From IMG/VR virus record IMGVR_UViG_3300041955_001975, positions 26,738 through 90,737 of that record: a stretch of DNA of 64,000 bases; one strand, written 5' to 3'. The position numbers were made by a program, and so were the translations under genes. The number at the start of each line of letters is the position of its first letter. Position 1 is the first letter of the stretch. The notes beneath the pieces are model-generated. The model was not told the origin of the DNA, did not search any database, and was given only the letters and a program-made list of their open reading frames with translations. This document shows positions 1-26,530 of the stretch, one piece after another. This stretch comes from a virus (lineage: Duplodnaviria > Heunggongvirae > Uroviricota > Caudoviricetes).

Positions 1-169
1 TGAACACGTTAATCATCAGGGTCCACTTCCTTTGCCTCCTCGCAGGTCTCTCGGTGCTTGCGCCAGCACTCGTCACACAATGGGCCAGCTCCGCAGGGGC
101 AGTAGGACGAGTCGTTGCTGATTCCGGCTCTTCCGGTCGGCTCGTCGCATTCATGACAGAACTCCGCGG

Positions 170-727
170 TCAGCGCACGATGCTATAGGCTTTGTCCATC
201 TCTTGAATGACGCGAGCCAGGTCACCGGGCGGGACCGTGATGTGCGGAATCCGCCACTCGTGCAGATAGTTGGCGATGGTGTCGTGCATTGCCCCAGCGC
301 TTCCAGGCGTTTGGTAACGACCCTGCGGCTTGTAGGGAACGAGGCGGTCCACGAGAAAGTTGATTGACTGATAGACCCGATCGAACTCCTCGGCAATGTG
401 CCGTAGCTCTCTTGCCGCCGGTCGCTGTTGATGCACGGCGTACATGACCTGCAACATCATCGGCGAGTCGGTCACGACCATGTTCACGCCGGCCTGGAGG
501 AAAAGGTCCTCCGCGTGCAGTTGCTTGGCGAACGTGTAAACGTAGTCAAAGGACCGCAACTCCCGACGCTGGTAGGCCCACGTCTTGATGAACTCTTGCG
601 CCAACTCCACATCGAAGCCCTTAGCCTTCAGGTGGCCGAACAACTGGGCCGCCAGGGTGCTCTTGCCTACGCCGGGGCCGCCGAAGAAGTTGATGCGTAG
701 TCCCACGATGCGTCTCTTCGTTTCCAA
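170..727 (-). CDS. P-loop NTPase, putative nucleotide/nucleoside kinase
   Basis: Walker A motif GGPGVGKST within 15 residues of the N-terminus. Size and layout resemble small AAA/adenylate-kinase-like kinases. Confidence 0.5.
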   Translation of the reverse strand: METKRRIVGLRINFFGGPGVGKSTLAAQLFGHLKAKGFDVELAQEFIKTWAYQRRELRSFDYVYTFAKQLHAEDLFLQAGVNMVVTDSPMMLQVMYAVHQQRPAARELRHIAEEFDRVYQSINFLVDRLVPYKPQGRYQTPGSAGAMHDTIANYLHEWRIPHITVPPGDLARVIQEMDKAYSIVR

Positions 728-862
728 GTCGTCGGCCGGTTACCGCGCGTTTCGCTATGTCGGTATGATCTCCGCTACAGCACGCGCCCGTCTTCAATGT
801 TCCCACCCGGGCCAACCCACACCGAAACTAGATTGGCCACCCTCACCGGCCTTCGACTTGTT

Positions 863-1513
863 TCACTGTTTGGTCTTGACGAAGACGAGGAAGTAGGAGT
901 GGTTCTTTCTCGCGTGGACTTGCTTATTCATCCGACTCACTCCGGGTCGATTTGTTCGCACGAGTACAAACAAGTCTTTCGCGTGAAACCCCATCGTGGC
1001 GTACTCGTTGATGATCTCGACGTGGGTCAAGTGTTGCCGGTTGGCGCTCACTTCGTCTTGGCACTTGACAATGAGAGTTCCGCCATGCCGAAGCACGCGA
1101 CGGGCCTCTACGGCAGCCTCGACGTAGAGCGACAGGACGGCAGCGTGATAGCGTGGCCCGCTGGTAGTCATCGCCGAGGAAGAATAGTGCTCTCGAAAGG
1201 GCGCATGAGACCCGGAGCCCGCAAGTTGGCTCACGGCTCGCCGGAAAAAGCCTTCCATGTACGGCGGGTCAAGGACAACAGCGTCGATCGACCCATCCCC
1301 ATAAGGCAGCTTCCTGCAATCCACGCCGCTGTTCAGGTCGCTGGGCAACAACGTGTAGTGGGTCGGATCGACCTCTTTCCAGAACGTCCCTTTCCCATAG
1401 GTCACGTCTGCGACCTTGGAACCGCGCGGCACGTGCAGACGCAGGATGTCTGCGAATAGACGCGCGTTCTGGCCGACATGCGCGCTGAGAATTAGGGAAA
1501 TCGAGGCAGCCAT
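863..1513 (-). CDS. DNA methyltransferase (N6-adenine or N4-cytosine, DPPY motif)
   Basis: Catalytic motif VLDPPYMEG and SAM-binding-like DVTYGKGTF. Start set at MAASISL, which overlaps the upstream stop in a TAATG arrangement. The ORF track extends it to 1708. Confidence 0.6.
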
Positions 1514-2247
1514 TACTCGTCGCGCAGCCTCTTCATGGCCTGGAGGTAGTGCGTCTCGCAGTTGCGGCAGGCCCGGCAATAGCTCGACTCGATGCTGCCG
1601 CACATGGAGACCAGGCGATTGTCCCTGTAGCGGGACATGACGTATCGCATGAAGAGCTTGGTCGGGCAGTAGTAGGAGTTGATGTGCCGGACGCGCCACT
1701 CGTAGCACTCATCCGGGCCGCCGATGTCGTTCTGAACCTCGACGGAGACTGTAGGCTTGCGGTCGTAGTAGGCCATGAAGGTCAAGACCACGGGCAGGCC
1801 CCCCGTCGTCCAATGCCGCACGGCGGCGTCAATGTGTTCGAGGTTGGTGCCAGAGACTCGCAGGCGAATGAACATCACGTTCAAAGGCACCTGGTCTGCC
1901 CAAATTGGGCACCATGCCGGCGACTCTTCTTGCTGGTTGGCGGTCAGGACTACCGGCCCGGGGAAGTCCAGTGCGGGGACGCTCGTGTTGAAGAAGAAGT
2001 TCCTGTACTGCTGGGCCGTGGCGATCACCAGGTCGCGCTGGTTGTTACTGTCGTTGCCACAGTTCATGCGGACGATGCCGTCGCCCACTTCCTCCGGCGT
2101 CGGGACCACGGGCAACTGACCCAGCGGAATGTAGTACGCCCCCGGCCGATTGAAGAAGCACTGGCTGCATCCAATGGGACACGACCCCTTCTGCGGGATG
2201 CAATCGAATATCGGAGTGCCTTCTAGCTTCGGGTTGCGCCTGGTCAT
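1513..2247 (-). CDS. radical SAM domain protein
   Basis: Canonical CX3CX2C motif (CPIGCSQC) near the N-terminus plus an extra C-terminal Cys cluster (CRACRNC). 244 aa. Confidence 0.5.
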
Positions 2248-2256
2248 GGTGCGATC

Positions 2257-3015
2257 TCAGAAGTTGGTGAAGAGAATCTCGACCTTGTTGCTGCACTCGC
2301 CCCGACGCTCGCAGGCTCCTCGGCGGGGTGTGTCCCGCGTGATCCGGTTCCAATGCGGGTAGAAACTCGCAGCAGCTAGCGACTCGGACACGATCACCTT
2401 GGCACTGGCCGAGTTCAGCAATTCGACCATTGCCGGATAGTCAACGCGGTAGCGATACTCGTCCTCGTGGCCCACGTAGGGCGGATCGACGTAGATCAGG
2501 GCCTCGGAGTCGTTGTAGACTCGCTGGATTGCGGCCAGTGCGTCCTCGTGCAACAGCGCGACCCCGCGCATCCGGTTGGCGGCCGGGAGCACTCGTTGGA
2601 ACCAGTCGGCCCAGACCTCGCTCTTGGGCTTGTGCGGGGCTGAGGACTTATCCAGCGACCAAGTTGAATTGTTGCCGTTGCCGCAGTAGAACTGCGTTCC
2701 CTGGGCCATCAGCAGCACGGCCTGGTCGATGTCGCCCACCGGCTGCCCGCGCCAATTGGCGGCCGTATAGGGCGTGGCCCAGATCAGCGCAGCCAATTGC
2801 TCCGGCTGCGACTGGATTGCTTTCCACATGCCCATGACCACCTCGTCCAGATCGTTGACGATCTCGGCAAACGAGCGGGGCTTTGCCAACAGCACGGCGG
2901 CCGAGCCACAGCAGGGCTCCATGTAGACCCGGTGCTGCGGGAAGTGGGAAACAACCCACTTGGCGATGGACGCCTTGCCGCCGTACTGGCGATAGGTGAT
3001 CTTGGGCGTGGCCAT
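2257..3015 (-). CDS. Dam-type (D12 class) DNA N6-adenine methyltransferase
   Basis: N-terminal YGGK motif (RQYGGKASIAKW) and motif IV IYVDPPYV, typical of the D12/Dam family. Confidence 0.7.
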   Translation of the reverse strand: MATPKITYRQYGGKASIAKWVVSHFPQHRVYMEPCCGSAAVLLAKPRSFAEIVNDLDEVVMGMWKAIQSQPEQLAALIWATPYTAANWRGQPVGDIDQAVLLMAQGTQFYCGNGNNSTWSLDKSSAPHKPKSEVWADWFQRVLPAANRMRGVALLHEDALAAIQRVYNDSEALIYVDPPYVGHEDEYRYRVDYPAMVELLNSASAKVIVSESLAAASFYPHWNRITRDTPRRGACERRGECSNKVEILFTNF

Positions 3016-3410
3016 CAGTCTTCGTCGTCCTCTTCCTTGGCAACGATGTCTAATGCCTCCCCCATCAGGTACTCGGCCGCCAGGGCTCCGGCCTTCTCGA
3101 TGAGGACGGCGGCCCAGTGGACGATCAACGGTTGGTCGTCGTTCAGCTTGGCCTCCTCCAAAGTGACCAGGGCTTCCAGGACCAACTTGCCTTTCTTGGT
3201 GAGATGGCCGTCATCCAGGGCGTCGCCCAGGGCGCGGGCGTCGTTTCCCTCTTCCTGAAGGGTTAGAATTTCCTCCAGGGTGGCCTCAAGCTGGGCTTCC
3301 CGTGACTCCGTGGCAGCGGCCCCGGAGCCGTTACGTTGCTTCATTGCCTCCAAGAGTCCCTGGGCCTTCGTCCAGAGCTGGATCACTTCGCGTAAGGTCG
3401 CTTTATTCAT
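3015..3410 (-). CDS. highly acidic hypothetical protein (DNA-mimic-like composition)
   Basis: 131 aa from MNKATLREV. Very rich in D/E and has a C-terminal EEDDED tail. It sits inside the methyltransferase island. Confidence 0.35.
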   Translation of the reverse strand: MNKATLREVIQLWTKAQGLLEAMKQRNGSGAAATESREAQLEATLEEILTLQEEGNDARALGDALDDGHLTKKGKLVLEALVTLEEAKLNDDQPLIVHWAAVLIEKAGALAAEYLMGEALDIVAKEEDDED

Positions 3411-4089
3411 GGCTCGCCTCAAAGGTGAAAGTGGAGTCGATCTGGTTTCCCCGTTGATCCCAGCCTGCCCACGGCCTGCGGGCAAACAGTTCCAGGTAAG
3501 GCCCGGGGCTCTGCTCTTCGATCAGGTCGTAGAAGAAATCGGGCTTGACGCTGCGAGTCTCCCCGCGGCAGCAGGTAGGCTGTCGGCCGGCACGGGCCCG
3601 CCAGACGCAGGCTTCCACGCACTGCGAACAGAAGATGCTCTGTCGCACTGCGGTAGTAGTAGCCGGTCTTCATCGACGGGCTGCCGTCCGCCTTCACCTT
3701 CACCCAGGTCAACACCGTCTTGGGAACAAAACCCCAGGCCCCGACAATCTCATGTGCTTCAACCAGGAACGAGTTGGTGGTCCGCCGGATCGGCCTGGTC
3801 GCCCATGTGGGCCAGTTCGCCTCTTTCCGCGTCAGACCTCCTGGTTGCTGGCCTCGCGGCAGGTCTTGCACTGGACGATCTTGGTGCTGATGCCCTTGAT
3901 CTCGCTGTCGTAAGGGTCGGCGGCCGGCAGGGCGTCGGTGCCGCGCGACACTTTTCCGCAGTCGCGGCAACAGCCCACGAGCTGCTGGAGGTCGTAGGTC
4001 TTGCGATGGAATGTCGCTGGGTTGACGCAATGGCCCTTGTAGACCAATTGGCCGGGCTTCAGCGGGGTAGTCTTGGTCATGGCTGGCAA
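3403..4089 (-). pseudogene. MT-A70-family adenine methyltransferase, disrupted by two apparent frameshifts
   Basis: MT-A70-like blocks are split over three reading frames. One frame has LVEAHEIVGAWGF...TVLTWVKVK...GYYYRSATEHLLFAVRGS. Another has RSVKPDFFYDLIEE...YLELFARRPWAGWDQRGNQ. A third holds an N-terminal Cys-rich segment with ADPYD. Confidence 0.45.
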
Positions 4090-4114
4090 AAGGACTTGAT
4101 TCGCGGCGTCATCG

Positions 4115-4288
4115 TTACCTCACGATCCAGTGGTAGCAGTTGACCGGCCAACTCAAGGCCCACATCAGTTGATCCGGCGTGAGCCTGTGGTGGACCTGTT
4201 CCAGGGCCATCGCCAGGGCAAACGCGCCGCCGGCCCAAAAAATCAGGGTGTTGGTTATCAGGGCCAGGGTGAAGGAGATCAGTCGCAT
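4115..4288 (-). CDS. small membrane protein (57 aa, one TM helix)
   Basis: ATG to TAA ORF MRLISFTLALITNTLIFWAGGAFALAMALEQVHHRL..., hydrophobic at the N-terminus. It is below the 60-aa cutoff of the ORF track. Confidence 0.3.
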   Translation of the reverse strand: MRLISFTLALITNTLIFWAGGAFALAMALEQVHHRLTPDQLMWALSWPVNCYHWIVR

Positions 4289-4471
4289 GGTTCTTCCGCC
4301 TCGCGGCGGTCCTTGTGTTGAAGATGTTGACGGACTTGCTTTGCACCCTTCCGCTTCAGCCGCTTGCCAATGCCTCGTCGCACGTTATGACAGCGGCTAT
4401 CGGTATCTTGCGTGCGGGCCGTGGCCATGATTTCGGCACGTTTCGTATCCATGCCACGTCCCTGCCCAATA

Positions 4472-4504
4472 AAGAGTTGCAAAACACGGCTAACTGGTTT
4501 TCAG
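4472..4504 (-). promoter_or_regulatory. conserved intergenic motif copy A (candidate phage promoter)
   Basis: Plus strand: aagagttgcaaaacacggctaactggttttcag. Gene orientation: CTGAAAACCAGTTAGCCGTGTTTTGCAACTCTT. Confidence 0.5.
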
Positions 4505-4518
4505 CGGCGTGCGAATTG

Positions 4519-5025
4519 TCACTGCCTCGTAGCCGTCGTACAGAACGCCCCCTTCAGCGAGCAGCACTGCAACGCTCGGGCATTCCCCTTGCCGTAGGCC
4601 AGTAACACCGATGGGCCGCCGGCGTTGCCCTTGGCCCGGGTCCCGTTCATCTGGTAGAAATGCAACCGTCCTTCCAGGAACAGGACCCCATCCGCGTTGG
4701 CCCAGACATGCTCGAAGAACATCGCCGTTTCCGTTCTGGCGAAGATCAAAGCGATCCCGTTGCCGTGCTGACCCAGCCGGCCGAGCCATCGTCCCGTCTC
4801 CTGACCGTAGGGCGGATTGAGCCACACGCGGCCGAACCACGGCAGTTGCAGGCCGTCCTGTGGCGGAGTGTAATGGGACTTGGCTGTCGCCCACGGCTGG
4901 CCGGGGGCGGCGCAAGGGTCAAGATCAAACGGCCCAAGCGCCTTGATGATCTCCGGCGGCGTCAGCCAGCAGTCAGTTGCCCCTTGGAACGCGCGAGTAT
5001 GGCTGCCGATGCCTGTCTTCGTCAT
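4519..5025 (-). CDS. phage Dam-like DNA N6-adenine methyltransferase (NPPY)
   Basis: WLNPPYGQ catalytic motif in a ~170-aa protein typical of the phage N6A_Met/Dam family. Start MTKT overlaps the upstream stop as ATGA. Confidence 0.65.
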   Translation of the reverse strand: MTKTGIGSHTRAFQGATDCWLTPPEIIKALGPFDLDPCAAPGQPWATAKSHYTPPQDGLQLPWFGRVWLNPPYGQETGRWLGRLGQHGNGIALIFARTETAMFFEHVWANADGVLFLEGRLHFYQMNGTRAKGNAGGPSVLLAYGKGNARALQCCSLKGAFCTTATRQ

Positions 5026-6005
5026 GGGGCGACTTGCCGGGTTCGTTGGATTCGTTGAAGTGCTTGCTCGTACACGGCCTGCTTGATCTCGGCGGCAAAT
5101 GCCATCCGCCCGGCTTCCACCGCCGCGATCGAGGCGGTGCAAAGGCCGCCGAACGGCTCCCACACCACGTCGCCCGGGTCCGAGCAACTTTTCACGAGCA
5201 ACTGCATGAGGGCGAGCGGCTTCTGATTGGGATGGACCACGCTGCCTTGGACCTTGATCCGTTCCTTGCCGCGCACTGCCGGGACGTGCCAGACGTTGGT
5301 TACCCCGGCCTCACAGTGAAACTTCCCGCGAAGCTGCTCCCACTGTGAAGCCGCCAGGCTCGTCTCGCCGTCAACCGAAAAGTAGGGACGGCCCCAGGGA
5401 TCGCCGTGCGTGTTGGCGTAGTCCACCAGCCGTTGGAACACGTCGGGCGGCGGGAAGTACCACAGATAATCGCCGGTGAGATACTTGCGGGTGGCGGCGT
5501 TCTTCACGCCGCACGCCTTGTTCGACTTGGCGAGAGGCAGTCCGGTCCGCCGCCATTCCGCCCGGAGCCACTGCTGGGCAGAAAGCGGGGAGTCCGCGAC
5601 GGCCAATCGAAACTGGGGTTGCCGGACGTAGTGGACGCAGACCTCGGTGACGACGGGGAACTTCCGCAGCGTTTGCGTGTTCGTGTTGCCGGCGACGTGG
5701 GCCAGACCCTTGTCCCAGACGCAGCACGCCCGGTAAATCCAGCCCGCGTCCCGCAAGACGGGGTGGACTTCCGCCCAGCCGACCTCCGTGTTCCAAAACC
5801 AAAGCGTCGTGCTCGCGGTAGCACGGCGGGTCCATGCCGCAACGTGCGGCTCGTACCACTGGCGAAGTTGCTCCGGCCGTGCGAGATCGCCGTCGTAGCC
5901 ACTGAGACCGTAGGGCCCATCGGAAACGATGAGCGCCGGCGAGTCCCACTGATCGTAGTAGATCAGGGCGTCTCCGCAGCAGAGATGGATCAAGGGATCT
6001 CTCAT
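5022..6005 (-). CDS. DNA methyltransferase (N6_N4 MTase, beta class)
   Basis: N-terminal SDGPYG motif IV-like region. C-terminal HPNQKP...VWEPFGGLCTASIAA motif I region typical of PF01555-type enzymes. Start set at MRDPLIH. Confidence 0.6.
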   Translation of the reverse strand: MRDPLIHLCCGDALIYYDQWDSPALIVSDGPYGLSGYDGDLARPEQLRQWYEPHVAAWTRRATASTTLWFWNTEVGWAEVHPVLRDAGWIYRACCVWDKGLAHVAGNTNTQTLRKFPVVTEVCVHYVRQPQFRLAVADSPLSAQQWLRAEWRRTGLPLAKSNKACGVKNAATRKYLTGDYLWYFPPPDVFQRLVDYANTHGDPWGRPYFSVDGETSLAASQWEQLRGKFHCEAGVTNVWHVPAVRGKERIKVQGSVVHPNQKPLALMQLLVKSCSDPGDVVWEPFGGLCTASIAAVEAGRMAFAAEIKQAVYEQALQRIQRTRQVAP

Positions 6006-6089
6006 AACAAGTAGGCAAGGAAGGCAATGACAGGCCCGTAGGCTGCCAGAATCGGGACGGTGATGACCCAAGACGCGAAGGCGGAGACG

Positions 6090-7199
6090 TTACTCCATGT
6101 CCCTCCGCCGCCAGTAGCGGCCTTCCTTCGGAATGCCGTCGTCGGACAACTCACGGTACTTGAAGGTCACTGCCTGACCAACCTTGAAGTGCCGGCCCTG
6201 GAACCAGCCGGGCATGTCCACGCCCGGGTTGGCCGAGGCGAAGACGCCCATCTCGCCGGAGGCAAACTCGCGCTCGATGTCGGTTAGGCCGGAGAGTTCC
6301 AGCCGCTTGCCGCCATAGTCAACGATCAGGGCACCGATGCGGCCCAGATGCTTGCTGCCCTTGTCCGTCTCACGGCCGGATGTGAAGCCGACGATCATCG
6401 CCTCGGCGTCGGAGAACGGTTTGTACTTGAGGATGCCCCGATGCCGCTTCGGCGTCCAAGTTGCGTGCGGATTGCGGACGACGACGCCTTCGCCGCCCTG
6501 GTCAAGCACCTTTTGCAGGAAGGCTTCAACCTGTTTGGCCGCCTCTTCCGCTGTGTCGATCAGCTTCGTCTGCTGGTGCATGTAGCAGGCGGACAGGTCC
6601 GTGTTTTCCAGGGCGGCCCCCAGAAACTCCAACTCCTGGGCAAAGGTCGCCCGGCGGTTGATGAAGCAGAAGTCTCCGTCGAAGTCTTCAAGCCGCCCCT
6701 TGACCCATCCTTCAACCGCCTCGTAGTTGATGGCGGCGTGCAGGTTGGCGTTCTTGATCTCGCCGGAGGCAAACACCGAAGTGAGCGGCGGCGCGGAGTA
6801 GACGGCATACTGAATCTGCCGGAACCGCGGATCGGGCGTGTCGCCGCCACAGATCGACCGGCAAAGCTGGAAGTTCCCGCGGCCGGCCCACAGCTCGCCG
6901 TCCAGCAGGCAGCACGGCAAGAGATTCAGGAACCAATCCGGGGCGAGGATCGGATTGCCGTAGCGGCTCCACAGGCCCGTGGCGACCGGCTTGATCTTGG
7001 CCTTCATCCTGCCCGTCTTCGGGTCGGTGACCGAGGCCCAGGGGACCTCCACGGTCGGCATCCCTCGGCTCAAGCCGCCGTCCCAGAAACAGCGGGTGCC
7101 GTCGAGCTTCTCGGAGATAAGCCAGCCGGCAACGTCGTGCTTGGCCCGGACGTAGTGGTCGGCCAGTTGCAGGAACTCGCGGCGATTCGATGATGCCAT
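6090..7199 (-). CDS. ATP-dependent DNA ligase
   Basis: Adenylation motif I KxDGxR (ISEKLDGTRCF). Size of 369 aa is typical of phage T7-like ligases. Confidence 0.7.
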   Translation of the reverse strand: MASSNRREFLQLADHYVRAKHDVAGWLISEKLDGTRCFWDGGLSRGMPTVEVPWASVTDPKTGRMKAKIKPVATGLWSRYGNPILAPDWFLNLLPCCLLDGELWAGRGNFQLCRSICGGDTPDPRFRQIQYAVYSAPPLTSVFASGEIKNANLHAAINYEAVEGWVKGRLEDFDGDFCFINRRATFAQELEFLGAALENTDLSACYMHQQTKLIDTAEEAAKQVEAFLQKVLDQGGEGVVVRNPHATWTPKRHRGILKYKPFSDAEAMIVGFTSGRETDKGSKHLGRIGALIVDYGGKRLELSGLTDIEREFASGEMGVFASANPGVDMPGWFQGRHFKVGQAVTFKYRELSDDGIPKEGRYWRRRDME

Positions 7200-7327
7200 T
7201 ATGACGTGCCTCTACGGTGCTCAGATGGGTTATGATGAGAATGCGGCCCGGCGCAGCCGTTCCACCCGTTCGTCCTTGCGGCGAACGTGTAAACGTCGCT
7301 CGACCTGGATCGGCCGGCTGTAGACGA

Positions 7328-7765
7328 TCAGGCCGGGGCACCAAGCGGCATGTTCCAAGTAGCGGGTGCTGATGAATTCGACCGTCCGCATTCGCAAGCT
7401 TTCTTGGTTGACTGCCCCTGTCCAAAGAAAGAGTTGCAAAACACGGCCAACTGGTTTTCAGCCTCGCGCGAATTTTCCGCCGTGCTGACTTTAGGCGCTG
7501 GCCCGACCCCTGGTATGAACCCGGGTTGAGGCTCTGGACGGGGCCTTGGTTCAGGCCACTGGGGGCGCGGAATCCGGTGCTTGGCGAACACGTCTTCGCA
7601 CCGGCGAATGTACTCGTCGCGCACACCCAGGGCGCGTTGCAGACGGTCGGCCGTCTCCCAGGCCGCGATGAACCCTTCGTGCTCACGGGCGATCTCCCGC
7701 GCGTGGTCGATCTCCGCCAGGACGACAAAGGCAAGCACCAGGACGAGGATCACGATTCTCTGCAT
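7328..7765 (-). CDS. hypothetical secreted or membrane-anchored proline-rich protein
   Basis: From MQRIVILVLVLAFVVLA (signal/TM-like N-terminus), followed by a PEPRPRPEPQP segment. The C-terminal end reads through conserved intergenic motif copy B, so the 3' end is uncertain. Confidence 0.25.
   Translation of the reverse strand: MQRIVILVLVLAFVVLAEIDHAREIAREHEGFIAAWETADRLQRALGVRDEYIRRCEDVFAKHRIPRPQWPEPRPRPEPQPGFIPGVGPAPKVSTAENSREAENQLAVFCNSFFGQGQSTKKACECGRSNSSAPATWNMPLGAPA
7429..7461 (-). promoter_or_regulatory. conserved intergenic motif copy B
   Basis: aagagttgcaaaacacggccaactggttttcag. Identical to copy A at 32 of 33 positions. Confidence 0.5.
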
Positions 7766-8361
7766 GACTTGTACTCTCCTTGATAAGCCAGTAGCCGGCC
7801 GAAACACTCAACGAGATAGAGGGACATGCAGCAATGCCCCAGCTTGTTCCAGGGGCGCGGCACCAGGACGACGCAACCGTCATTGCCGGCCCGCTCGAAA
7901 AGATCGGTGTTCGCTTCGCTATCGTCCACCAGCAGGGCGTCAGGGCGCGCGAAGAGCCATTTGCGAGGCGTGATGGCGTACTGCCGGTGCATCCACGGCG
8001 GGAAGTGCTTCTGAATCCACTGGACCTTACCGGCCGCACAATCGGGGTCTTTGGTGGGACTGGTGGCAATGATGATGTTCTCCCGCCCCACCAGCCGCTC
8101 GCATTGCTCCAGCAGCCAGGGAAACTCCGGTGTCTCCGGCACGGAAGCCCAGTCGTCGCGTGTGAAAAACTCCCAGAAGGAGGGCCGAGTGAACCGCTGC
8201 TCGCCCAGCAGCCTATTGGCGATGTCGGCAAGATCAAACACCGAGCCGGCGGGCAGATCGCCGTAGTCCGTGGGGCTGACCTTGCAGCCCACAAGCGTCA
8301 GGAAGTACATGGACAGCGTATTGCACACGTCGTCCAGGTCGAGATAGATTCGACGGATCAT
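7750..8361 (-). CDS. HAD-superfamily 5'(3')-deoxyribonucleotidase-like phosphatase
   Basis: N-terminal HAD motif I DxDxV (IYLDLDDVCNTL). Size fits the NT5C-like dNMP phosphatases found in phages. Confidence 0.5.
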   Translation of the reverse strand: MIRRIYLDLDDVCNTLSMYFLTLVGCKVSPTDYGDLPAGSVFDLADIANRLLGEQRFTRPSFWEFFTRDDWASVPETPEFPWLLEQCERLVGRENIIIATSPTKDPDCAAGKVQWIQKHFPPWMHRQYAITPRKWLFARPDALLVDDSEANTDLFERAGNDGCVVLVPRPWNKLGHCCMSLYLVECFGRLLAYQGEYKSCRES

Positions 8362-9984: not shown

Positions 9985-12482
9985 CGCATCTCCTTGGCCC
10001 GGATCTTCACGGTGTCGGCCGTGCCCTTCTTTTCGGCCCAGTTCTGCATTTCCTTGTGCCAGGTGATGCCGATCAGGGGCACCTTGGGACGGAAACGCTC
10101 CACGTTCTCGCGCACGACATCGACGATCGTGTCGCCCAATTCCGGCCGGGTGACGCAGAGCAGCTCGTCGTGGACGTTCATAATCATCAGCCGTAGATCA
10201 TGGACGCCGGCAGGCTGCAATTCCCAAAGCTTTCGCTGGACGGCTTTCGTGATCTGGGCACCGGGGCTCTGGATCTCGTGGTTCGCCGCCGCCCGCATAT
10301 TGGCAGCCTGCATGGCGAACGACGCACCATAGAGCGCAGAAGAGACCGCGCCGCCTGCCGTCTGGACGCGATCGCGCCGCACGACCTTCACCTTGACGCC
10401 GGCCCAGTTTTTGGGTGGCTTGCGGGCCAGGTCGAAGAGCGCCTTGCAAATCTTGTTTTCCAGGCTGAAGTAGCGGCGGAACCCCAGGAAGGACTCGATG
10501 TACTCGGCTGGGTCCGCCCAGACCACCGCAGAGCCAAGGCCGCCCGGCTGCTTCATGGAGCAGAAGGCGTCGAACGTCTTCTGCCGAGCCTTGGGGATGC
10601 CCGGGAACTTCCTGAAGAATCCCTCCTCGGCACGCTGGGCGACTTCCGGCGAGAGACCGAACTTGCCCACAAGGGTGTTCCAGTCGCCGCCGTAGATCAT
10701 GCCGAAGACGCCCTGTTTGCCCTTGGTGTACATATCGAACTCGGTGTCGGCCGAGGCCAAGATGTCTTCGTAGGTCTTGCCGGGGTACATCTCCATGCCG
10801 AACAGGGCATGGATCTTCTTCCCGCTGCACAAGGCGGCGCGCAGGGATGGGTCGTTGTACACGGCGTCCGCCAGTGTCACCTCGAAGGAATCAAAGTCGC
10901 CACCGCAGAGGATGTAGCCGTCCCAGGAAAGCGGGAACATGCGGCGCACGTCCTTGGTGTGCTTGATGCCCTGCGGGTTCAGGCCGTCCGCACCGGCCAT
11001 GCGGCTGGAAAGGGTGCCGATCACGACGAACGAGGCGTGGAACTTGCCGGCCAGGAGCAGCTTCTGGTAGAGTTCCACCTCCTTGGCGGCGATCTTCACG
11101 TCGAGGATCTTGCCGGCACGCAGCGCGGCGGGGTGACGCCCGACCCGCATGACGCCCGTGCCCCCGCAGCGGGGACATTGCGGGTCGGTCCCTTCCACGC
11201 ACTTCGCGCAGGGTTCGTCTTCAGCGACTTCCCATTCGCGGATGGCTTCGAGGTTGGCCTTCTTCGTGGACGCCTCCAGGATGATGCCCTCCGTCTCGTC
11301 CATCGCGGCGGTGACGTAGCCGCGGACTTCACCCGGCTTGTTGATGTTCACCGGGGCGTTGTCCACGACGGCCTGGGCCTTTGCCAGCAGCCCCTTCATG
11401 CCGGGGATGTCGATCTGGAAGCCGTGCCAGCGGACGACGGGGACCATGCAGGCCAGGATCGAATCGTCGTCGCCCGGCGGCGGGTCGCCAAAGTGGTGGT
11501 CCAGGGCCCGCGTGTAAACGATGTCGTCGTTGGCGTACTCACGGGCGTCCGGCCGGGTCGCCCAGTGCGCGATGTGCTTGCCGATCACGCCGGGCCAGGC
11601 GTAGCCCAGCAGCTTGTCTACGCCGGCCTTCGGCTTCTTGGGGCGTTCATCGTCGTCGTGCGCATCACCCAACTGGGCGTCCAGGTCGGCGAGTGTCACG
11701 GGCTCCTCATTCAGGACTTGGAGTTTCCCCTTCTTCTTGCCCCACACCTCCCAGTTCTTTTCCGGCGACGACACGGCCAACGCCGTGGGCGCATAGCCCA
11801 ACTCGTAGGGCCGCCAAGAGGTCTGCGGCTCTACGTCCTTGAAGTGGAACTTGGGCTTGAACCCCATTGCGTGCTCGGCCAGGAACTTGAGGCCGCCGGC
11901 AGGGTTGAAGCGCAGCACCACGTCCTTGAACTCGGTATCAAGGTCGCCGAAGCGATCCTTGCGATCGAAGGTTTGCCACTTGGGCGCGTTGGGGTCCGCC
12001 GACTTGGCGAAATAGATACTGTCGAGCTGGATACGACGTTCCAGCTCGCCAGCCAGCGCGTAGGCGAGTGCGGTGGGGACCCGCTTGATGCGGATGTCTT
12101 CGCGGGCCATGAGTGCCTGGTAGGGACCCTTGCGGCTGTGCAGCAGCAAGTCCAGGGCTGAAGCGGGCTTGACGCAGGGGCCATCCTGACCCCTGGGCTC
12201 AAGCAGGGCGATCTCGTTGACGTGATCCTGCGGAATCCAGTCCGGGTCGCAGAGGCGGAAGATCGTGTAGAGCTTGACGATATGGAACCAGTCGAACGAC
12301 AGGTTGAAACCGACCACGCACTCCTCGCACAGCCACTCAATCAGATTGAGCGTCGTGCGGACTGGCTGCCGCCAGACTTCGTGAAGGTGGATCGGACCTT
12401 CACCCTCTGCGTACTGCAACAGGACTGCCATGCTGTGCAGGCCGCAGGTTTCGGAGTCGAGGTAACGTTTAATCAACGGCAT
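9981..12482 (-). CDS. DNA polymerase, family A, with N-terminal 3'-5' exonuclease
   Basis: Exo I DxE (YLDSETCGLH) at the N-terminus. Polymerase motif C (IMNVHDELL) near the C-terminus and a motif-A-like GGDFDSFE. Has an internal Cys4 insertion (CAKCVEG...CPRCGG). 833 aa. Confidence 0.8.
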   Translation of the reverse strand: MPLIKRYLDSETCGLHSMAVLLQYAEGEGPIHLHEVWRQPVRTTLNLIEWLCEECVVGFNLSFDWFHIVKLYTIFRLCDPDWIPQDHVNEIALLEPRGQDGPCVKPASALDLLLHSRKGPYQALMAREDIRIKRVPTALAYALAGELERRIQLDSIYFAKSADPNAPKWQTFDRKDRFGDLDTEFKDVVLRFNPAGGLKFLAEHAMGFKPKFHFKDVEPQTSWRPYELGYAPTALAVSSPEKNWEVWGKKKGKLQVLNEEPVTLADLDAQLGDAHDDDERPKKPKAGVDKLLGYAWPGVIGKHIAHWATRPDAREYANDDIVYTRALDHHFGDPPPGDDDSILACMVPVVRWHGFQIDIPGMKGLLAKAQAVVDNAPVNINKPGEVRGYVTAAMDETEGIILEASTKKANLEAIREWEVAEDEPCAKCVEGTDPQCPRCGGTGVMRVGRHPAALRAGKILDVKIAAKEVELYQKLLLAGKFHASFVVIGTLSSRMAGADGLNPQGIKHTKDVRRMFPLSWDGYILCGGDFDSFEVTLADAVYNDPSLRAALCSGKKIHALFGMEMYPGKTYEDILASADTEFDMYTKGKQGVFGMIYGGDWNTLVGKFGLSPEVAQRAEEGFFRKFPGIPKARQKTFDAFCSMKQPGGLGSAVVWADPAEYIESFLGFRRYFSLENKICKALFDLARKPPKNWAGVKVKVVRRDRVQTAGGAVSSALYGASFAMQAANMRAAANHEIQSPGAQITKAVQRKLWELQPAGVHDLRLMIMNVHDELLCVTRPELGDTIVDVVRENVERFRPKVPLIGITWHKEMQNWAEKKGTADTVKIRAKEMR

Positions 12483-12527
12483 AGTCGTAGCTTGGGGTAT
12501 TGCTCAGTGCTCAAGAGTGAAGCGGAA

Positions 12528-12719
12528 TCAGGCGGCTTCGATGCGGGGCCCGCCGGCCTCAGCCATAGCGCCCTCTTCGAGTAAGGCCGCCCTCGCGGCC
12601 CGCATTTGCTTCAGCGATGCGAACATGCCCCGGGTGTCCCACTCCAACACACATTCGATGAACACCTCGTAGGCAAGCGCCAACGTCTTCCAGGCTTCGC
12701 ACTCGTCTCTCAGCTTCAT
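12528..12719 (-). CDS. hypothetical protein
   Basis: 63 aa from MKLRDECEAWK. Compact and gene-like in composition. Confidence 0.3.
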   Translation of the reverse strand: MKLRDECEAWKTLALAYEVFIECVLEWDTRGMFASLKQMRAARAALLEEGAMAEAGGPRIEAA

Positions 12720-12915
12720 GGTTTCCTCGGTTCTTGGAGGGCTCCCGGCACGTCGCACGACTACCCACCAGCCACGGCGGGCGTTACCGTTATGGCCGGG
12801 CTACGGTCCCTCCCAGTCAACAGCCGTGCGGTTATGGGTTCAGCGCAGGTCCGCGCAGACCGGGAGCCCTCTTGGCCATCATTCACGGGTTAGGTGCCGG
12901 CATCCGACACCTGGA

Positions 12916-13284
12916 CTAGAACACGTCATAGGTCCAGCCGGGGCCGACAACACTGGCCGCGACGACAGGGCCGGACATGAAGTTGCCGTTGCGGAAGCGG
13001 ATGAACATCTGAAGCGTTCGACCGATCCAGGCGTCCAGGCCGACGTTGGCATCCAAGACATAGACGCCTCGTAGGTACTGGCCAACTGTGGACTGCCGTA
13101 GGAGGGGCAAGGTGCTGCTCACTTCCACCAGACCGGAAGCGGGATTGAGTACGGTGATCTCGAAGAGGTGGTTATCCGTCTCAACCATGATCTTGGTGCC
13201 CTTGTTTTGCCGTGTCAGGTCGATTCCTGGCTGGGCTTTCAGGGCCTTCAGAACTTCTTCACGGGTCGGCAGTGCAGGCATCAT
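12916..13284 (-). CDS. hypothetical protein
   Basis: ATG 12 nt downstream of conserved motif copy C with a GGAG in between. 122 aa. Confidence 0.4.
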   Translation of the reverse strand: MMPALPTREEVLKALKAQPGIDLTRQNKGTKIMVETDNHLFEITVLNPASGLVEVSSTLPLLRQSTVGQYLRGVYVLDANVGLDAWIGRTLQMFIRFRNGNFMSGPVVAASVVGPGWTYDVF

Positions 13285-13294
13285 TCGCTCCACA

Positions 13295-14158
13295 TTAAGA
13301 GTTGCAAACCGACCCTTTCTGGTTTTCGTCCTCGATGTCTTTTATCAACGCGGCGTCGTCAATCTCGGCCATCGCCCAGGCCAGAGCCCGGGTAGGGAGC
13401 CCGTTGACCCCGGCCTCAAACATTCTGAGGATCATCGCATTGATCTGCTCCTTGGTGCGGCGAAACCGGAAGCGACGTTTGTACGTTTCATCGAGTCCCG
13501 GCAACTTGCCGCTCGATCCCCGCCGCCGGGCATCCGCGGTTTTCTCGGCAAGGAACAACTGCTCCTCCGGCGCTTCCTTGTACAGCCGCTCGATCGAGAC
13601 CTGCGACAAGAGGCCGTTGGCAGCCATCTCTTGGATTTCGACCGGGAGATCCAGCAGCCGGAAGCGTGCCGCGATCCACTTCGTGGGCCGATGCAGTTCC
13701 TTATTGGCCTGCCGAAGCGACACGCCGTCAGGGTACAGACGTTTGAGTGCGATGGCCTCTTGCAGCATGTTCAGGTCTTTCCGCTCAAGATTCTCCGTGA
13801 AGTTGAGCAGGCGGGCCTCGTAGTCCGTCAACTCGTGTCGGACCATCGCCGGAATGTTCGCCCACTTCAGAAAGAACTCGACCGCTCGAAAGCGCCGGTG
13901 GCCGGCGATCAGTCGATAGTCAAAGCCCGAGGGCACAGTGCCCACGACCTCGGCGGTGAGCTGCACCACGACGGGAAAATCGAGGCCCCTTAGTTCGACA
14001 CCCCCTCCCTTCTGGCGAATGCTCTCGGCCAATTCCGAGACCGACTCCAGCGTGAACTGCCCCCGGCAGTTGAAATCGGCATCGTAGTAGATGCCGCTCA
14101 ACGGCAGGGCAAACACGTCATAGTCCTGGAGTCTCTCCGCCACCAGCAGTCTCCTCAA
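13295..14158 (-). CDS. ParB-like nuclease domain protein
   Basis: ParB N-terminal domain signature LIAGHRRFRA. Confidence 0.6.
   Translation of the reverse strand: MRRLLVAERLQDYDVFALPLSGIYYDADFNCRGQFTLESVSELAESIRQKGGGVELRGLDFPVVVQLTAEVVGTVPSGFDYRLIAGHRRFRAVEFFLKWANIPAMVRHELTDYEARLLNFTENLERKDLNMLQEAIALKRLYPDGVSLRQANKELHRPTKWIAARFRLLDLPVEIQEMAANGLLSQVSIERLYKEAPEEQLFLAEKTADARRRGSSGKLPGLDETYKRRFRFRRTKEQINAMILRMFEAGVNGLPTRALAWAMAEIDDAALIKDIEDENQKGSVCNS
13297..13328 (-). promoter_or_regulatory. conserved intergenic motif copy C
   Basis: aagagttgcaaaccgaccctttctggttttcg, 12 nt upstream of the ATG of gene 12916..13284. Confidence 0.45.
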
Positions 14159-14161
14159 CGC

Positions 14162-14938
14162 TCATTCCAGGACGATGTTGTTCGGCGTCGGGCCGTGATC
14201 CCAGTCGTAGACCCGCACCGAGTCGCCGGTGATGTTGACGAAGCTGTTAACCTGGGTACACCAGGAGCCCGAGTTGTAGTACCACTCCCCCTGACGCCCG
14301 GGGGTGTGCGTATGCCCGCCAATCACGATGTCGCACTCGCCGTTGTCCACGGGCTGCTTCAGGCCGGCGATCAGTTCTTGATCTCGCGGCTTCTTGCCCC
14401 AAAGCCACTCGTGGAAGGCGACCATCTTTTCCAGGCTGCCGACAAACAGGTCCTCGATGCTCGATCGCCCCCTCATGGGTCCGCCGTTCTTGTCCTCCAG
14501 CAGCCCCGTGATCGTGGCCAGGATGCGGCTGAAATCGGGCATCTCGTTGGAGCAATACTTATCGGCCTCGTGGCCGTGCATGATCTTGATCCGCCGGCGG
14601 CCGTCATTCAGAACGAATGGACCGCACAAGGTGTCGAATAGCGGGTGATTCAGGAAGTGCGCGCCGATGAAGTGGAGTAGGTCAATGTCGTGGTTGCCCA
14701 CGACGTAAATGGCCTGCATCGCCGCCAGGCGATCCAACAAGGGGCCATAGTGCTCGACCGACCGGCTGAAGTTGCACTGCCAGAGATCGAACAAGTCGCC
14801 CGCAATAATCAGGCGGCCGTGTTGCTGCTCCACGAAGTCCAGAAAGCGATCGAACTGCTGCGGCCGATCGTTCCACGCGAAGCGATCGCGGGGGCCGCCA
14901 TCGCACAGATGCAAGTCAGAGACTACGAAATGATTCAT
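14162..14938 (-). CDS. calcineurin-like metallophosphoesterase
   Basis: Motifs SDLHL, GDLFD, GNHD, GHEAD and GGHTH. Start set at MNHFVV, so it does not overlap the tRNA. Confidence 0.6.
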   Translation of the reverse strand: MNHFVVSDLHLCDGGPRDRFAWNDRPQQFDRFLDFVEQQHGRLIIAGDLFDLWQCNFSRSVEHYGPLLDRLAAMQAIYVVGNHDIDLLHFIGAHFLNHPLFDTLCGPFVLNDGRRRIKIMHGHEADKYCSNEMPDFSRILATITGLLEDKNGGPMRGRSSIEDLFVGSLEKMVAFHEWLWGKKPRDQELIAGLKQPVDNGECDIVIGGHTHTPGRQGEWYYNSGSWCTQVNSFVNITGDSVRVYDWDHGPTPNNIVLE

Positions 14939-14968
14939 CGGTCCTCTCCAGATTACGTAACGCATGAG

Positions 14969-15040
14969 CTGCCAGGGCAGGACTCGAACCTGCAATGACG
15001 CGATTAACAATCGCGGACCTTGCCATTAGGCGACCTGGCA
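14969..15040 (-). tRNA. tRNA-Asn (anticodon GTT)
   Basis: Manual cloverleaf: acceptor TGCCAGG/CCTGGCA, anticodon stem CGCGA/TCGCG with loop TTGTTAA, T-arm GCAGG-TTCGAGT-CCTGC, discriminator G. CCA is not encoded. Confidence 0.6.
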
Positions 15041-15104
15041 TCGTCTCACACCGTCGCCTTGACAGGCCACGGTGCGGGTACTGTTCCCGCGCATGGCGGG
15101 TCAG

Positions 15105-15458
15105 CTAATCACGTGGTCTCGTCGAACGTGTCGAAGCCTTCGTCGTCAAGGTTGTCGTGCCGCTCCTCGTGCCGCTCGGGAATCGGCACTTCTCCCGTAA
15201 CTCGGCGATCACGTCCTCAAGGGTCTTGTATTCGCCGCGCTCATAGGCTTCGATGCACCGCCGCTCCATCTCGGCGTCGTACTTGACCACCACGTCGTCC
15301 GTGGCGAAGTGCATACCGAGCCACTCCCACCAGACGGTGAAGTGCAATTCGTGCTGAGCGTCCCAGTACCAGTTGCGACGGCAGAGCGGCACGAGGGTCT
15401 GAAAGAGGAATACGAAGTCGGACAGGAACGTGACCAGGGTCAGGACAATGCGGAACAT
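15105..15458 (-). CDS. hypothetical membrane protein
   Basis: From MFRIVLTLVTFLSDFVFLF (hydrophobic N-terminus). The ORF track's upstream extension is low-complexity. Confidence 0.3.
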   Translation of the reverse strand: MFRIVLTLVTFLSDFVFLFQTLVPLCRRNWYWDAQHELHFTVWWEWLGMHFATDDVVVKYDAEMERRCIEAYERGEYKTLEDVIAELREKCRFPSGTRSGTTTLTTKASTRSTRPRD

Positions 15459-15471
15459 GGTTGTCTCCTTC

Positions 15472-15909
15472 TTATCGGTGGCCTCCGCCGCCATGACTGC
15501 CACCGCCACGTGGACCAGGGGTAGGACCAGGACGCAGACCAGGATTGTAGCGCGGCTCGGGCCGTCGCGGTTCAGGCCGAGGCTCCGGCCGTCGCGGTTC
15601 GGGTCGCATTCCAGGGCGCTCGCCTGGCATGATGATGGGCGGTCCGACAATGACGGGCGGCTCGACGATGATGGGCGGTTCCACCACAATGGGCGGCTCG
15701 AAAGCCGGCGGCTGGACAATGACAGGAGGCCGGATGACCGGCGTGACAATGACGGAGCCGTCAGGGATCAGGAACCTGCTGCCGTCCGGCGTCACGAGAA
15801 TTGAGCCATTGGGAACAGCGACCGTGTCAGCCTTGACAGGCGCGCATGTTCCCAGAACAAGCAGCAGCAAGACAATCAAGAGAACGATGCCGAAGGTGAA
15901 GCGAATCAT
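15472..15909 (-). CDS. secreted proline-rich repeat protein
   Basis: Signal-peptide-like MIRFTFGIVLLIVLLLLVLGTCAP. Then VEPPI(I/V)V and RRPEPRPEP repeats. Confidence 0.45.
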   Translation of the reverse strand: MIRFTFGIVLLIVLLLLVLGTCAPVKADTVAVPNGSILVTPDGSRFLIPDGSVIVTPVIRPPVIVQPPAFEPPIVVEPPIIVEPPVIVGPPIIMPGERPGMRPEPRRPEPRPEPRRPEPRYNPGLRPGPTPGPRGGGSHGGGGHR

Positions 15910-16229
15910 GGTTGGTCAATCTCCAGTTTGGCGAAGACAATCTTGCGCATGTCGTCAAGGTGGTGTTGTGTGGCCACCAGGCAGCCCGCGCCGGCCTTGG
16001 CCTCCGTCGGCCGCAGGCCGCAGGACCATAGCTGGTTCATCAGGGCCTGGGCCTCCTCGCGGAACAATCGAAAGGTGGGCTCGACCGGCGCACCCTGGGG
16101 AATCGTGGTGTCGAATTCCAAGGGCTTGCGGATGCCCCGCCGCTCACCGTTGTGATGGCGGACAAGGACAGCCTCTCTCCTCGTGCATCGCGGCGTAGTG
16201 ATCGAGCAGCTTCTGTAGCACCTGGTCAT
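15906..16229 (-). CDS. hypothetical protein
   Basis: ORF only; no recognisable motifs. Confidence 0.25.
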   Translation of the reverse strand: MTRCYRSCSITTPRCTRREAVLVRHHNGERRGIRKPLEFDTTIPQGAPVEPTFRLFREEAQALMNQLWSCGLRPTEAKAGAGCLVATQHHLDDMRKIVFAKLEIDQP

Positions 16230-16452
16230 CCGACAGGGTGCTCAGCTTGAAGAGGCGGACGGGCTGCTGCTCGCCGATCAAGACCTCGCGGTACTGAACC
16301 TTCTGGAATGGAGGCGGCACTTCAACCCGCAAGGGCACCGCCAGCGGGACGGGCCTCTTCCGTGGCACGCAGGCATAGAGCACCGTCAGCCGATCGTCCA
16401 CGGTTCGGACACAGCCGTCCATCGGACCGCCAATCAGTACGGCGCGCTTCAT
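16144..16452 (-). CDS. hypothetical protein
   Basis: ORF only; 102 aa. Confidence 0.3.
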   Translation of the reverse strand: MKRAVLIGGPMDGCVRTVDDRLTVLYACVPRKRPVPLAVPLRVEVPPPFQKVQYREVLIGEQQPVRLFKLSTLSDDQVLQKLLDHYAAMHEERGCPCPPSQR

Positions 16453-17162: not shown

Positions 17163-17654
17163 CTAGACAATCAGGGCCATCTGTTCGCCGTGCCCTCTTC
17201 GGAAATGCACGGCTCCACAGGCCCATCCAAATCCGAAGCCCACAGCGCGACCCGTCCACGGTGCGTAAACCTCGACAATCCCGCCATAGCGCTTAACCAT
17301 CAACAACCGTTTCCGGCTGCCGAAGACCTTGGCGATCGGCAGGAGGTAGACCACGTTGGCCGCCAACGCGAAACTGTGCTCAAGCCACGCATTGAGGATC
17401 GAGTAAGGTGGGTTGCCGATAATCCAGTCCACGGGCTGCTTCCAATCGAAGAAGTCTCGGCCCTCTCTGATCTCGCACCACAGACACTCCGGCACATGGC
17501 GGCTAAACGCACGATCGCCAGCGCAGGGGTCCAGCACCTTTCCTGTTGGCAGATAGCGACGAACGATCGCCGCGGCGACATGATCGGGCGTAAAGACCAC
17601 ATCCCGATCCTTGAAGTCCTTCGAGTTGTCAGACCGCAGGTGCGTCATCGGCAA
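17163..17654 (-). CDS. N6-adenine methyltransferase catalytic domain (Eco57I/TaqI-like, no target-recognition domain)
   Basis: FTPDHVAAAIV...VLDPCAGDRAF (motif X/I) and IIGNPPYS (motif IV). At 163 aa it is too short to include a TRD. It is flanked by a ~100-bp direct repeat. Confidence 0.55.
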   Translation of the reverse strand: MPMTHLRSDNSKDFKDRDVVFTPDHVAAAIVRRYLPTGKVLDPCAGDRAFSRHVPECLWCEIREGRDFFDWKQPVDWIIGNPPYSILNAWLEHSFALAANVVYLLPIAKVFGSRKRLLMVKRYGGIVEVYAPWTGRAVGFGFGWACGAVHFRRGHGEQMALIV

Positions 17655-26359: not shown

Positions 26360-26457
26360 CTACACCTACAGGAGATGTCAAAAACGGGCGGTTTTTTCAG
26401 AAAAGGGGCACCGTTTGTGAAAAAAACACTCGTATCTGACATCTCCTGTAGGTGTAG
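26360..26457. promoter_or_regulatory. 21-bp perfect inverted repeat pair with 56-bp AT-richer spacer (candidate origin/operator/centromere-like site)
   Basis: CTACACCTACAGGAGATGTCA ... TGACATCTCCTGTAGGTGTAG, in the divergent region between the ParB-like (minus) and primase (plus) genes. Confidence 0.5.
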
Positions 26458-26530
26458 CTATCCCAGCGTCTTCCGCGCCGGAAGACCTTCCACACTGAGC
26501 GCGTGTAAACGCATCTATCAGGGAAGCGAA

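Follow-up and report, generated by a model that had tools for sequence, protein, structure and literature searches.

Why does a single phage carry so many DNA methyltransferase (MTase) genes? The question is posed by a 64,000-nt stretch of phage DNA (positions 26,738 to 90,737 of IMG/VR record IMGVR_UViG_3300041955_001975; hereafter the window), in which a cluster of such genes, the island, occupies positions 863 to 6005 and two more stand apart from it. A first-pass annotation, made from the letters alone, had counted seven MTase genes of several classes and proposed that they give broad, multi-specific protection from restriction or else hypermethylate the adenines of the virion DNA. We found that the island is an accessory slot of variable content, set in a replication module that a large clade of uncultured phages shares, and that many 6-bp palindromes have been purged from the window. 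We consider it probable that the orphan N6-adenine-type MTase cassettes, exchanged and lost among these phages, and the purge of hexamers together amount to an escape from restriction.

Every open reading frame (ORF) named in the first-pass annotation was present where it had been placed, and all MTase ORFs and all named island ORFs lie on the minus strand (Table 1). Its family calls agreed with our profile searches for M1, M2, M4, M5 and M7. The count of seven had to be reduced: six MTase-family ORFs are intact, and the seventh, an MT-A70 gene, is a dead copy. Even so, six intact genes and one pseudogene in 64 kb are far above the norm, judging from a survey of gut phages that reported 3921 MTases and found subunits related to restriction-modification (R-M) in 3543 of 22,673 genomes (PMC10711547). 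The MTases are orphans, as had been claimed. No ORF of restriction-endonuclease size adjoins the island genes, the ORFs that separate the island MTases are all small, and neither the ORF list nor PADLOC revealed a nuclease or partner beside the MTases that would complete an R-M, BREX or DISARM system. PADLOC returned only the generic Type II and orphan models (MTase_II and oMTase) for the MTases and only generic SNF2 for the helicase. When positions 1-8000 were compared with INPHARED by blastn, no close known phage was found; the only matches, at 65-69% identity, covered the Dam gene (Gordonia and Mycobacterium phages).

The catalytic motifs were then read gene by gene. M1 matched part of PF01555 (5e-9; 36.8 bits against a cut-off of 26.7; profile positions 1-108) and phrog_24333 (7e-72). 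It is not of the beta architecture, because its N-terminal G-x-G (DVTYGKG, near residue 40) precedes the DPPY at residue 82, the reverse of the beta order. M2 matched PF02086 (6e-14; 52.8 bits against a cut-off of 22), phrog_56 (7e-33) and TIGR00571 (7e-12), and has the alpha-class order, with motif I (EPCCGSA) at residues 33-39 and DPPY at 177. Its score against the Dam model TIGR00571 is below the cut-off (45.6 compared with 114.9), and GATC specificity therefore cannot be assumed. M4 matched PF05869 (1e-11; 44.9 bits against a cut-off of 28.1), phrog_111 (2e-41) and TIGR01712 (1.5e-9), the last again under the equivalog cut-off (37.6 compared with 97). M7 matched PF01555 (2e-27; 97.3 bits against a cut-off of 26.7) and phrog_67 (8e-61). 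Its motifs are canonical, DPPY at 35 and FAGSGST at 373, with a long insert in the middle.

Inactivating substitutions in the catalytic or cofactor-binding motifs had been named in the first-pass annotation as evidence that would count against functional enzymes. A canonical D/NPPY motif IV is present in five of the six intact ORFs. The MT-A70 copy lacks its DPPW, M5 carries DGPY in place of DPPY, and M6 has a non-canonical arginine (R48) in motif I. Motif IV of the D/N type goes with N6-adenine rather than N4-cytosine enzymes, and all motif IV variants of the window MTases are of the adenine type.

Table 1. Coordinates of the methyltransferase genes, their neighbours and other features of the window.
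Feature	Position	Strand	Description
AAA_28 P-loop protein	170-727	-	PF13521 3e-17; backbone gene downstream of the variable slot
M1	863-1513	-	216-aa MTase; start codon shares 1 nt with the stop codon of the radical-SAM-like gene
Radical-SAM-like protein	1513-2247	-	244 aa; core gene of the phage clade
M2	2257-3015	-	D12-class (alpha) N6-adenine MTase, 252 aa
Acidic protein	3015-3410	-	131 aa, predicted helical; pI 4.4; 28 D/E, 13 K/R
MT-A70 pseudogene	3403-3783	-	5'-truncated (no DPPW); +1 frameshift near 3565
Zinc-ribbon-like ORF	3832-4080	-	82 aa; separate gene call in L001
M4	4519-5025	-	Phage Dam-family N6-adenine MTase, 168 aa; NPPY at residue 70
M5	5022-6005	-	Beta-class PF01555 MTase, 327 aa; PF01555 8e-15, 55.8 bits, cut-off 26.7
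ATP-dependent DNA ligase	6090-7199	-	PF14743, PF01068; conserved backbone upstream of the variable slot
ParB_N/HTH_ParB gene	13295-14158	-	Replication region
Metallophos phosphoesterase	14162-15010		
tRNA-Asn (GTT)	14968-15040	-	Single tRNA gene
M6	17163-17654	-	TaqI-like MTase core, 163 aa; NPPY at residue 81; no target-recognition domain
Exonuclease	17703-19022		N-terminal helix-turn-helix
Trypsin-like protease	19235-20098		
SNF2-like DNA helicase	20452-22419	-	Directly downstream of M7; phrog_62 1e-49, weak PF00176; context, not a nuclease
M7	22419-23657	-	Beta-class PF01555 MTase, 412 aa; stop codon runs into the start of the SNF2-like helicase gene
ParB_N/HTH_ParB gene	25451-26359	-	Replication region
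DUF5906 protein	26297-29251	+	984 aa; probably a primase-helicase
Collagen-like protein	56500-58653	-	717 aa; probably a tail fibre

Palindromes of the window were counted and compared with Markov-4 expectations; an alternative expectation from base composition was also computed. For 22 uninterrupted 6-bp palindromes, 2 copies were observed in total, compared with ~393 (Markov-4) or 429 (base composition) expected. GGCGCC, AGGCCT, GACGTC, CTGCAG, CTCGAG, TGATCA, TCGCGA, CAGCTG, CCATGG, ATCGAT, AGATCT, TTCGAA, GCATGC, TCCGGA and GGATCC are each entirely absent, with 12-29 copies expected of each. The purged sites are those of XhoI, StuI, PstI, SalI, AatII, NarI, BclI, NruI, PvuII, NcoI, ClaI, BglII, BstBI, SphI, BspEI, BamHI, ScaI, ApaLI, SacI, BsiWI, MluI and AclI. 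All 1175 non-palindromic 6-mers with an expectation of at least 20 do occur, the scarcest of them at 0.45 of its expectation. Some hexamer palindromes stand at expectation (observed/expected: GCCGGC 123/124, CGGCCG 96/102, TGGCCA 47/48, CGATCG 51/64 and GAATTC 13/12). The purge took 21 of the 33 A/T-containing hexamers and only 1 of the 8 made of G and C (Fisher p = 0.016). Counts equal or close to those expected were found for 4-bp palindromes and for those of 5 and 7 bp with a central N (GATC 420/414, GANTC 190/205). The only low 4-mers are CTAG, strongly so (19/87, ratio 0.22), and GTAC, mildly (139/194, ratio 0.72).

Relatives of the window, labelled L001 and so on, were retrieved with the family of the radical-SAM-like protein as the probe (47 IMG/VR loci, several long metagenome contigs and 9 genome loci). 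The core purge list is common to every close relative (L006-L040, L056-L059 and L062). Pooled over 32 loci, CTCGAG was found 0 times with 240 expected, AGGCCT 0/189, GTGCAC 0/109, AGTACT 0/109 and TTCGAA 1/175. Most of the distant low-GC phages that carry the radical-SAM-like gene are little depleted (L055 136/148, L048 68/77), though several are partly depleted (L046 26/78, L050 24/77, L053 22/53). CCGCGG, CCCGGG, GGGCCC, CGATCG and TCGCGA are present in some relatives and absent from others. We also observed that the window keeps CGATCG (51 copies), GGGCCC (25), CCCGGG (29) and CCGCGG (33) near expectation and that most close relatives have purged them (CGATCG 121/450 pooled); retention or purge of these four sites is roughly bimodal between phages.

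Such a very strong, genome-wide signature of Type II restriction pressure makes an anti-restriction role, which the first-pass annotation had ascribed to the MTases, the most economical reading. The enzymes would then act on the phage DNA and methylate their motifs there, with escape from restriction as the presumed benefit. The island itself holds 0 sites of the purged set, compared with ~32-34 expected, so the cassettes are old residents of this gene pool and not recent imports.

The relatives also show how the island is built. In the closer ones the backbone runs PolA, NT5C, DNA ligase, a variable slot, the radical-SAM-like gene, a second slot, and then AAA_28 and/or DeoC; the AAA_28 gene follows the radical-SAM-like gene in L006, L011, L017, L035 and others. 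The cassettes M1, M2, M3 (the MT-A70 gene), M4 and M5, and M7-like genes, recur among the relatives in other combinations and positions. M5 sits between ligase and the D12 gene in L014, between PolA and NT5C in L018 and after the radical-SAM-like gene in L022. M2, the commonest cassette adjoining the radical-SAM-like gene, precedes it in L010 and follows it in L007. M4, the M7-like genes and MT-A70 likewise vary in position. In L066, a 228-kb contig, Metallophos and ParB genes flank the M6 orthologue. Among 35 non-redundant related loci the number of MTases per 20 kb has a median of 2 and a maximum of 6. The island is not peculiar to the phage of the window: its position in the module is conserved across the clade, its content is not, and cassettes are shuffled among relatives. 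One MTase behaves differently: M8, a conserved PF01555 protein of ~250 aa, keeps its place in nearly all relatives, 4-9 kb further along the backbone. Judging from synteny, the M8 of the window's phage probably lies just past the left end of the window; 46-mer scans of viral and metagenome contigs recovered no sequence from there.

Dam methylation marks DNA for packaging in phage P1, and CcrM-type enzymes reprogramme the host. The MTases could in the same way serve the biology of the phage itself (replication timing, packaging or gene expression) or reprogramme its host, an explanation that we consider unlikely. It would fit the location of the genes within a replication module, near PolA, ligase, helicase and ParB-like genes, the translational coupling of M7 to the SNF2-like helicase, and the fixed, housekeeping-like M8. 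However, M8 lies outside the window and is no part of the island, and the island cassettes differ in presence and position among close relatives, one of them being dead, which is unexpected for essential regulation. The restriction signature throughout the genome also offers a simpler selective reason.

Selection on the cassettes was estimated by comparing each gene with its nearest orthologue. The ratio of nonsynonymous to synonymous substitution rates (dN/dS) was 0.14 for M1 (amino acid identity 83% with L013; a further orthologue is in L014), 0.13 for M2 (81%), 0.13 for M4 (79%) and 0.15 for M5 (80%). Compared with these, the ligase had 0.34 (69%) and the radical-SAM-like gene 0.26 (72%). 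For four of the five MTases tested, therefore, values of 0.13-0.15 mean strong purifying selection, and these island cassettes are maintained by it. Selection on M7 was much weaker than on the island MTases (dN/dS 0.39, identity 61%). Since the island cassettes are more alike between phages (79-83%) than the backbone genes are (69-72%), exchange between phages fits.

Turnover of cassettes is visible in the dead MT-A70 copy. The gene had been annotated at 3403-4089, and this extent could not be upheld: the MT-A70 homology covers only about 3403-3783, and 3832-4080 is a separate and unrelated zinc-ribbon-like ORF. Two frames of the remnant match successive segments of PF05063 (positions 51-110 and 133-172 of the profile) and also of phrog_359. 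There is no continuous ORF, and no DPPW was found anywhere upstream of the remnant. By tblastn, the intact 201-aa MT-A70 of L006 aligns to the window only over residues 71-195. By blastn against L011, homology begins at 3783 (the TTNSF codons); the aligned stretch is 81% identical and is interrupted only once, where the window has one extra nucleotide near 3565, inside the codons of a conserved PHSVKP. The gene has lost ~88 N-terminal codons, about the N-terminal third, with the ADPPW among them. An assembly error was considered as the source of the frameshift and rejected. Over 4118-1247, contig L001 from a different sample aligns without gaps at 99.8% identity and carries the same lesions, which are therefore real.

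The intact arrangement is preserved in L011, where the zinc ribbon, MT-A70, acidic protein and radical-SAM-like genes follow in this order. The zinc-ribbon-like ORF matches two PHROG families of unknown function (phrog_31350 and phrog_20551), and homologues of it occur in L011, L022 and L058. The small protein that had been called very acidic is acidic, though not extremely so. Its start is most likely at 3410, the position of the gene call in L001. Homologues lie directly upstream of the radical-SAM-like gene in L011, L034 and L056. It matched no Pfam, PHROG or NCBIfam family and nothing in the PDB, a result that speaks neither for nor against a known anti-restriction DNA mimic.

The decaying copy and the differing positions of cassettes between phages could also mean that these genes are mainly selfish or hitch-hiking DNA, spreading between co-infecting phages with little gain in fitness, and that the island is their dumping ground. 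Mobile elements are indeed close by in L066: its MT-A70 gene stands beside an HNH endonuclease gene (HNH_3), and Endonuclease_7 and HNH_3/AP2 homing-endonuclease genes (at 12265-16429 and 20238-20486) flank PolA and that MT-A70 gene, which suggests homing-type mobility for some cassettes. As an account of the island as a whole, we find this quite improbable. The dN/dS of the cassettes is below that of backbone genes and speaks of sustained selection on the proteins, the MTase motifs are intact, and the island of the window contains no homing-endonuclease ORF.

M5 and M6 are the two unusual members of the set. In M5 motif IV is DGPY, where DPPY is expected, and motif I is EPFGGLCT, where FxGSG is expected; both are in the right places, and in a profile alignment the DGPY falls on the DPPY of M.MboIIA. 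The phage orthologues of L014, L018 and L022 (75-79% identity) have the same DGPY and FGGL, and neither motif varies among bacterial homologues at 52-60% identity. The subfamily, with the motif DGPYG, has more than 6700 members in phages and in bacterial chromosomes (Chondromyces, Competibacteraceae, Gemmataceae). Decay was considered as the cause of the DGPY and rejected, the motif being invariant across the subfamily, chromosomal bacterial members included. A literature search for a DGPY methyltransferase motif returned nothing relevant.

M6 scored 17.5 bits against PF02384 (N6_Mtase), below the cut-off of 20.4, and some of its homologues have a precomputed PF02384 match; it also matched phrog_799 (3.5e-26). 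LDPCAGDRAF followed by NPPY, on a Rossmann MTase fold, gives the order of motif I and motif IV of gamma-class (TaqI/Eco57I-like) enzymes. R48 replaces the second glycine of motif I, which is kept as glycine in 24 of 30 homologues. N81, P82 and P83 are invariant in the family, and residue 84 is Y in 27 of 30 and F in 3 of 30. A truncated fragment was ruled out as an explanation of its size, since nearly all of the 301 homologues have 156-210 aa. The predicted model is a bare catalytic core. Its closest folds include the RNA m6A methyltransferases PH1948, ErmC' and METTL5 together with M.TaqI, and it is as near to the RNA enzymes as to M.TaqI. The substrate of M6 may be either DNA or RNA.

Little room is left for the last alternative, that adenine methylation is heavy and non-specific, for example by the M6 core, or that some of the proteins methylate RNA or protein instead of DNA: a conserved ~160-aa family without a recognition domain, the RNA-enzyme folds near M6 and the DGPY of M5 are compatible with it, but five of the six enzymes come from families of site-specific DNA MTases, and a purge of 21 of 33 A/T-containing hexamers would be pointless under global adenine methylation. 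For the same reason the extensive adenine hypermethylation proposed in the first-pass annotation is unlikely.

Escape from restriction remains the explanation that we prefer, and several observations weigh against it. Of the multi-specificity proposed for the MTases, the diversity was confirmed, with at least five sequence families among the six intact genes; target motifs could be assigned for none, the PDB relatives being too distant (sequence searches with M1, M2, M4, M6 and M7 and a profile search with M5 gave distant matches or none). Activity on DNA is uncertain for M5, with its DGPY and FGGL, and for M6, with its R48 and missing recognition domain. With an adenine-type motif IV throughout, the MTases cannot explain why hexamers made of G and C only, such as GCCGGC, are retained. 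Across 36 non-redundant, phylogenetically related loci (±10 kb of each), the presence of cassettes showed no link to the retention of 4-mer or 6-mer palindromes that survived correction (best p 4.7e-4 in 336 tests). Finally, the very thoroughness of the purge shows that methylation alone is insufficient as protection.

With these points in mind, escape from restriction could work as follows. The lineage would have been under long and intense pressure from Type II restriction and would have met it with two passive defences. In the first, most 6-bp palindromic sites have been mutated away. The second would deal with shorter sites, which occur in hundreds of copies and are too frequent to delete; orphan adenine-type MTases would cover a subset of them. 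From their position on the same strand, the MTases may be co-expressed with PolA, ligase and helicase and so be made alongside the replication proteins. Newly made phage DNA would be methylated at the target motifs before packaging, and the restriction enzymes of the next host that recognize those motifs could not cut it. Gain, relocation and loss of cassettes, as with the dead MT-A70, would track the restriction repertoires encountered.

The radical-SAM-like protein between M1 and M2 has 433 homologues at 60-76% identity, all unannotated. C23, C27 and C30, which form an N-terminal CxxxCxxC, are invariant in 40 homologues, and a C-terminal cluster of four cysteines (C-x7-C-x2-C-x2-C) is also invariant in the family. 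No sequence or profile match was found in Pfam (PF04055 included), PHROG, NCBIfam or PDB. The AlphaFold2 (AF2) model has a mean predicted confidence (pLDDT) of 91 and a partial TIM-barrel fold, and superposes over 154-178 residues on Mmp10, NifB and PFL activase; the nearest folds are spore photoproduct lyase, QueE and viperin. Among viral structures, a search of BFVD gave nothing below E 0.015. The radical-SAM label of the first-pass annotation is thus supported by the CxxxCxxC motif and the modelled fold, and not by family membership. Nor is the gene, which had been placed inside the MTase cluster, a partner of the MTases. This role was rejected because the gene occurs both in relatives that have MTases beside it and in relatives that do not, and because in the distant low-GC phages none of its neighbours is conserved.

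DNA or nucleotides are the substrates of spore photoproduct lyase, QueE and viperin alike, and the protein shares with these enzymes the partial TIM-barrel and the N-terminal CxxxCxxC. It differs from them in having no match at the sequence level, an extra C-terminal four-cysteine cluster and no conserved partners. It is conceivable, though we would put little weight on it, that the modelled enzyme modifies or repairs DNA or nucleotides in a way not described before and that the MTase cassettes gather round the same process; relatedly, the M6 core may be a new non-specific or partner-guided adenine methylase.

Other features of the window were noted beside the island. The replication region contains two ParB_N/HTH_ParB genes, and the single tRNA gene extends into the 5' end annotated for the Metallophos ORF. 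The gene for the DUF5906 protein, on the opposite strand, marks a strand switch, and AT skew is positive over 26-32 kb. Most of the probable tail fibre is built of collagen-like Gly-X-Y repeats, each unit ~40 aa long. This repeat gene accounts for a local GC peak of 67-68% and for a cluster of GGGCCC.

Loci with the same backbone, cassettes and purge (L057, L058, L059 and L062) lie on contigs of Planctomycetota metagenome-assembled genomes (MAGs), namely Thermoguttaceae contigs of 481 kb and 137 kb and a Planctomycetaceae contig of 1.07 Mb. Related loci from MAGs of these two families are found in JAXGPP010000005.1, JBDKTJ010000060.1 and CAWBLA010000006.1. This suggests Planctomycetota as the host phylum, or else prophages or binned phage DNA. 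Artefacts of binning or assembly are also possible, as several L062 genes are split. If the host assignment is true, the window gives one of few glimpses of conflict between phages and their hosts in Planctomycetota.

In the window, two classic passive strategies against restriction, deletion of sites and methylation of sites, appear to be pushed to an extreme in one lineage. Its relatives form a natural experiment, which could allow MTase specificities and the restriction repertoires of hosts to be read from metagenomes. Three widespread uncharacterised families are flagged as well: the radical-SAM-like core, the beta-class DGPY subfamily and the ~160-aa MTase cores. These have not yet been described. 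Orphan phage MTases and restriction-site avoidance are both well known, and the window is an unusually rich case of them.

Among known systems, one functional parallel is found in the Bacillus phages SPbeta, phi3T and rho11s, whose multispecific C5-cytosine MTases carry several specificities in one protein. They give broad protection against several restriction enzymes, as is proposed for the window, which in contrast uses separate genes, all of the adenine type. Phage orphan methyltransferases were reportedly reviewed by Murphy et al. in 2013. They are used against restriction by T4, T1 and P1 (Dam), and Cellulophaga phage phi18:1 has four MTases (PMC11946311). Like these, the MTases of the window stand alone, have no restriction partner, lie in or near a replication module and belong to the D12, PF05869, PF01555 and MT-A70 families (PMC11946311). 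The window differs from known multi-MTase phages in having more of them, six intact genes and a pseudogene in 64 kb and probably M8 outside it, and in that its cassettes are seen shuffling among ~35 relatives.

A fixed position in the backbone with variable counter-defence cargo is also a feature of the accessory-gene or hyper-variability hot spots of phages, as reported in bioRxiv 10.1101/2024.10.15.618418. Compared with those hot spots, the annotatable cargo of the window consists almost entirely of MTases, and its slots flank a conserved radical-SAM-like gene. Site avoidance was described by Rusinov et al. 2018 as the simplest of several anti-restriction strategies (PMC6286503), and the selective loss of Type II-like palindromes is common to that description and to the window. 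Here, however, the loss is unusually complete and broad, with 22 hexamers purged and the core list held throughout the clade, and it coexists with many MTases.

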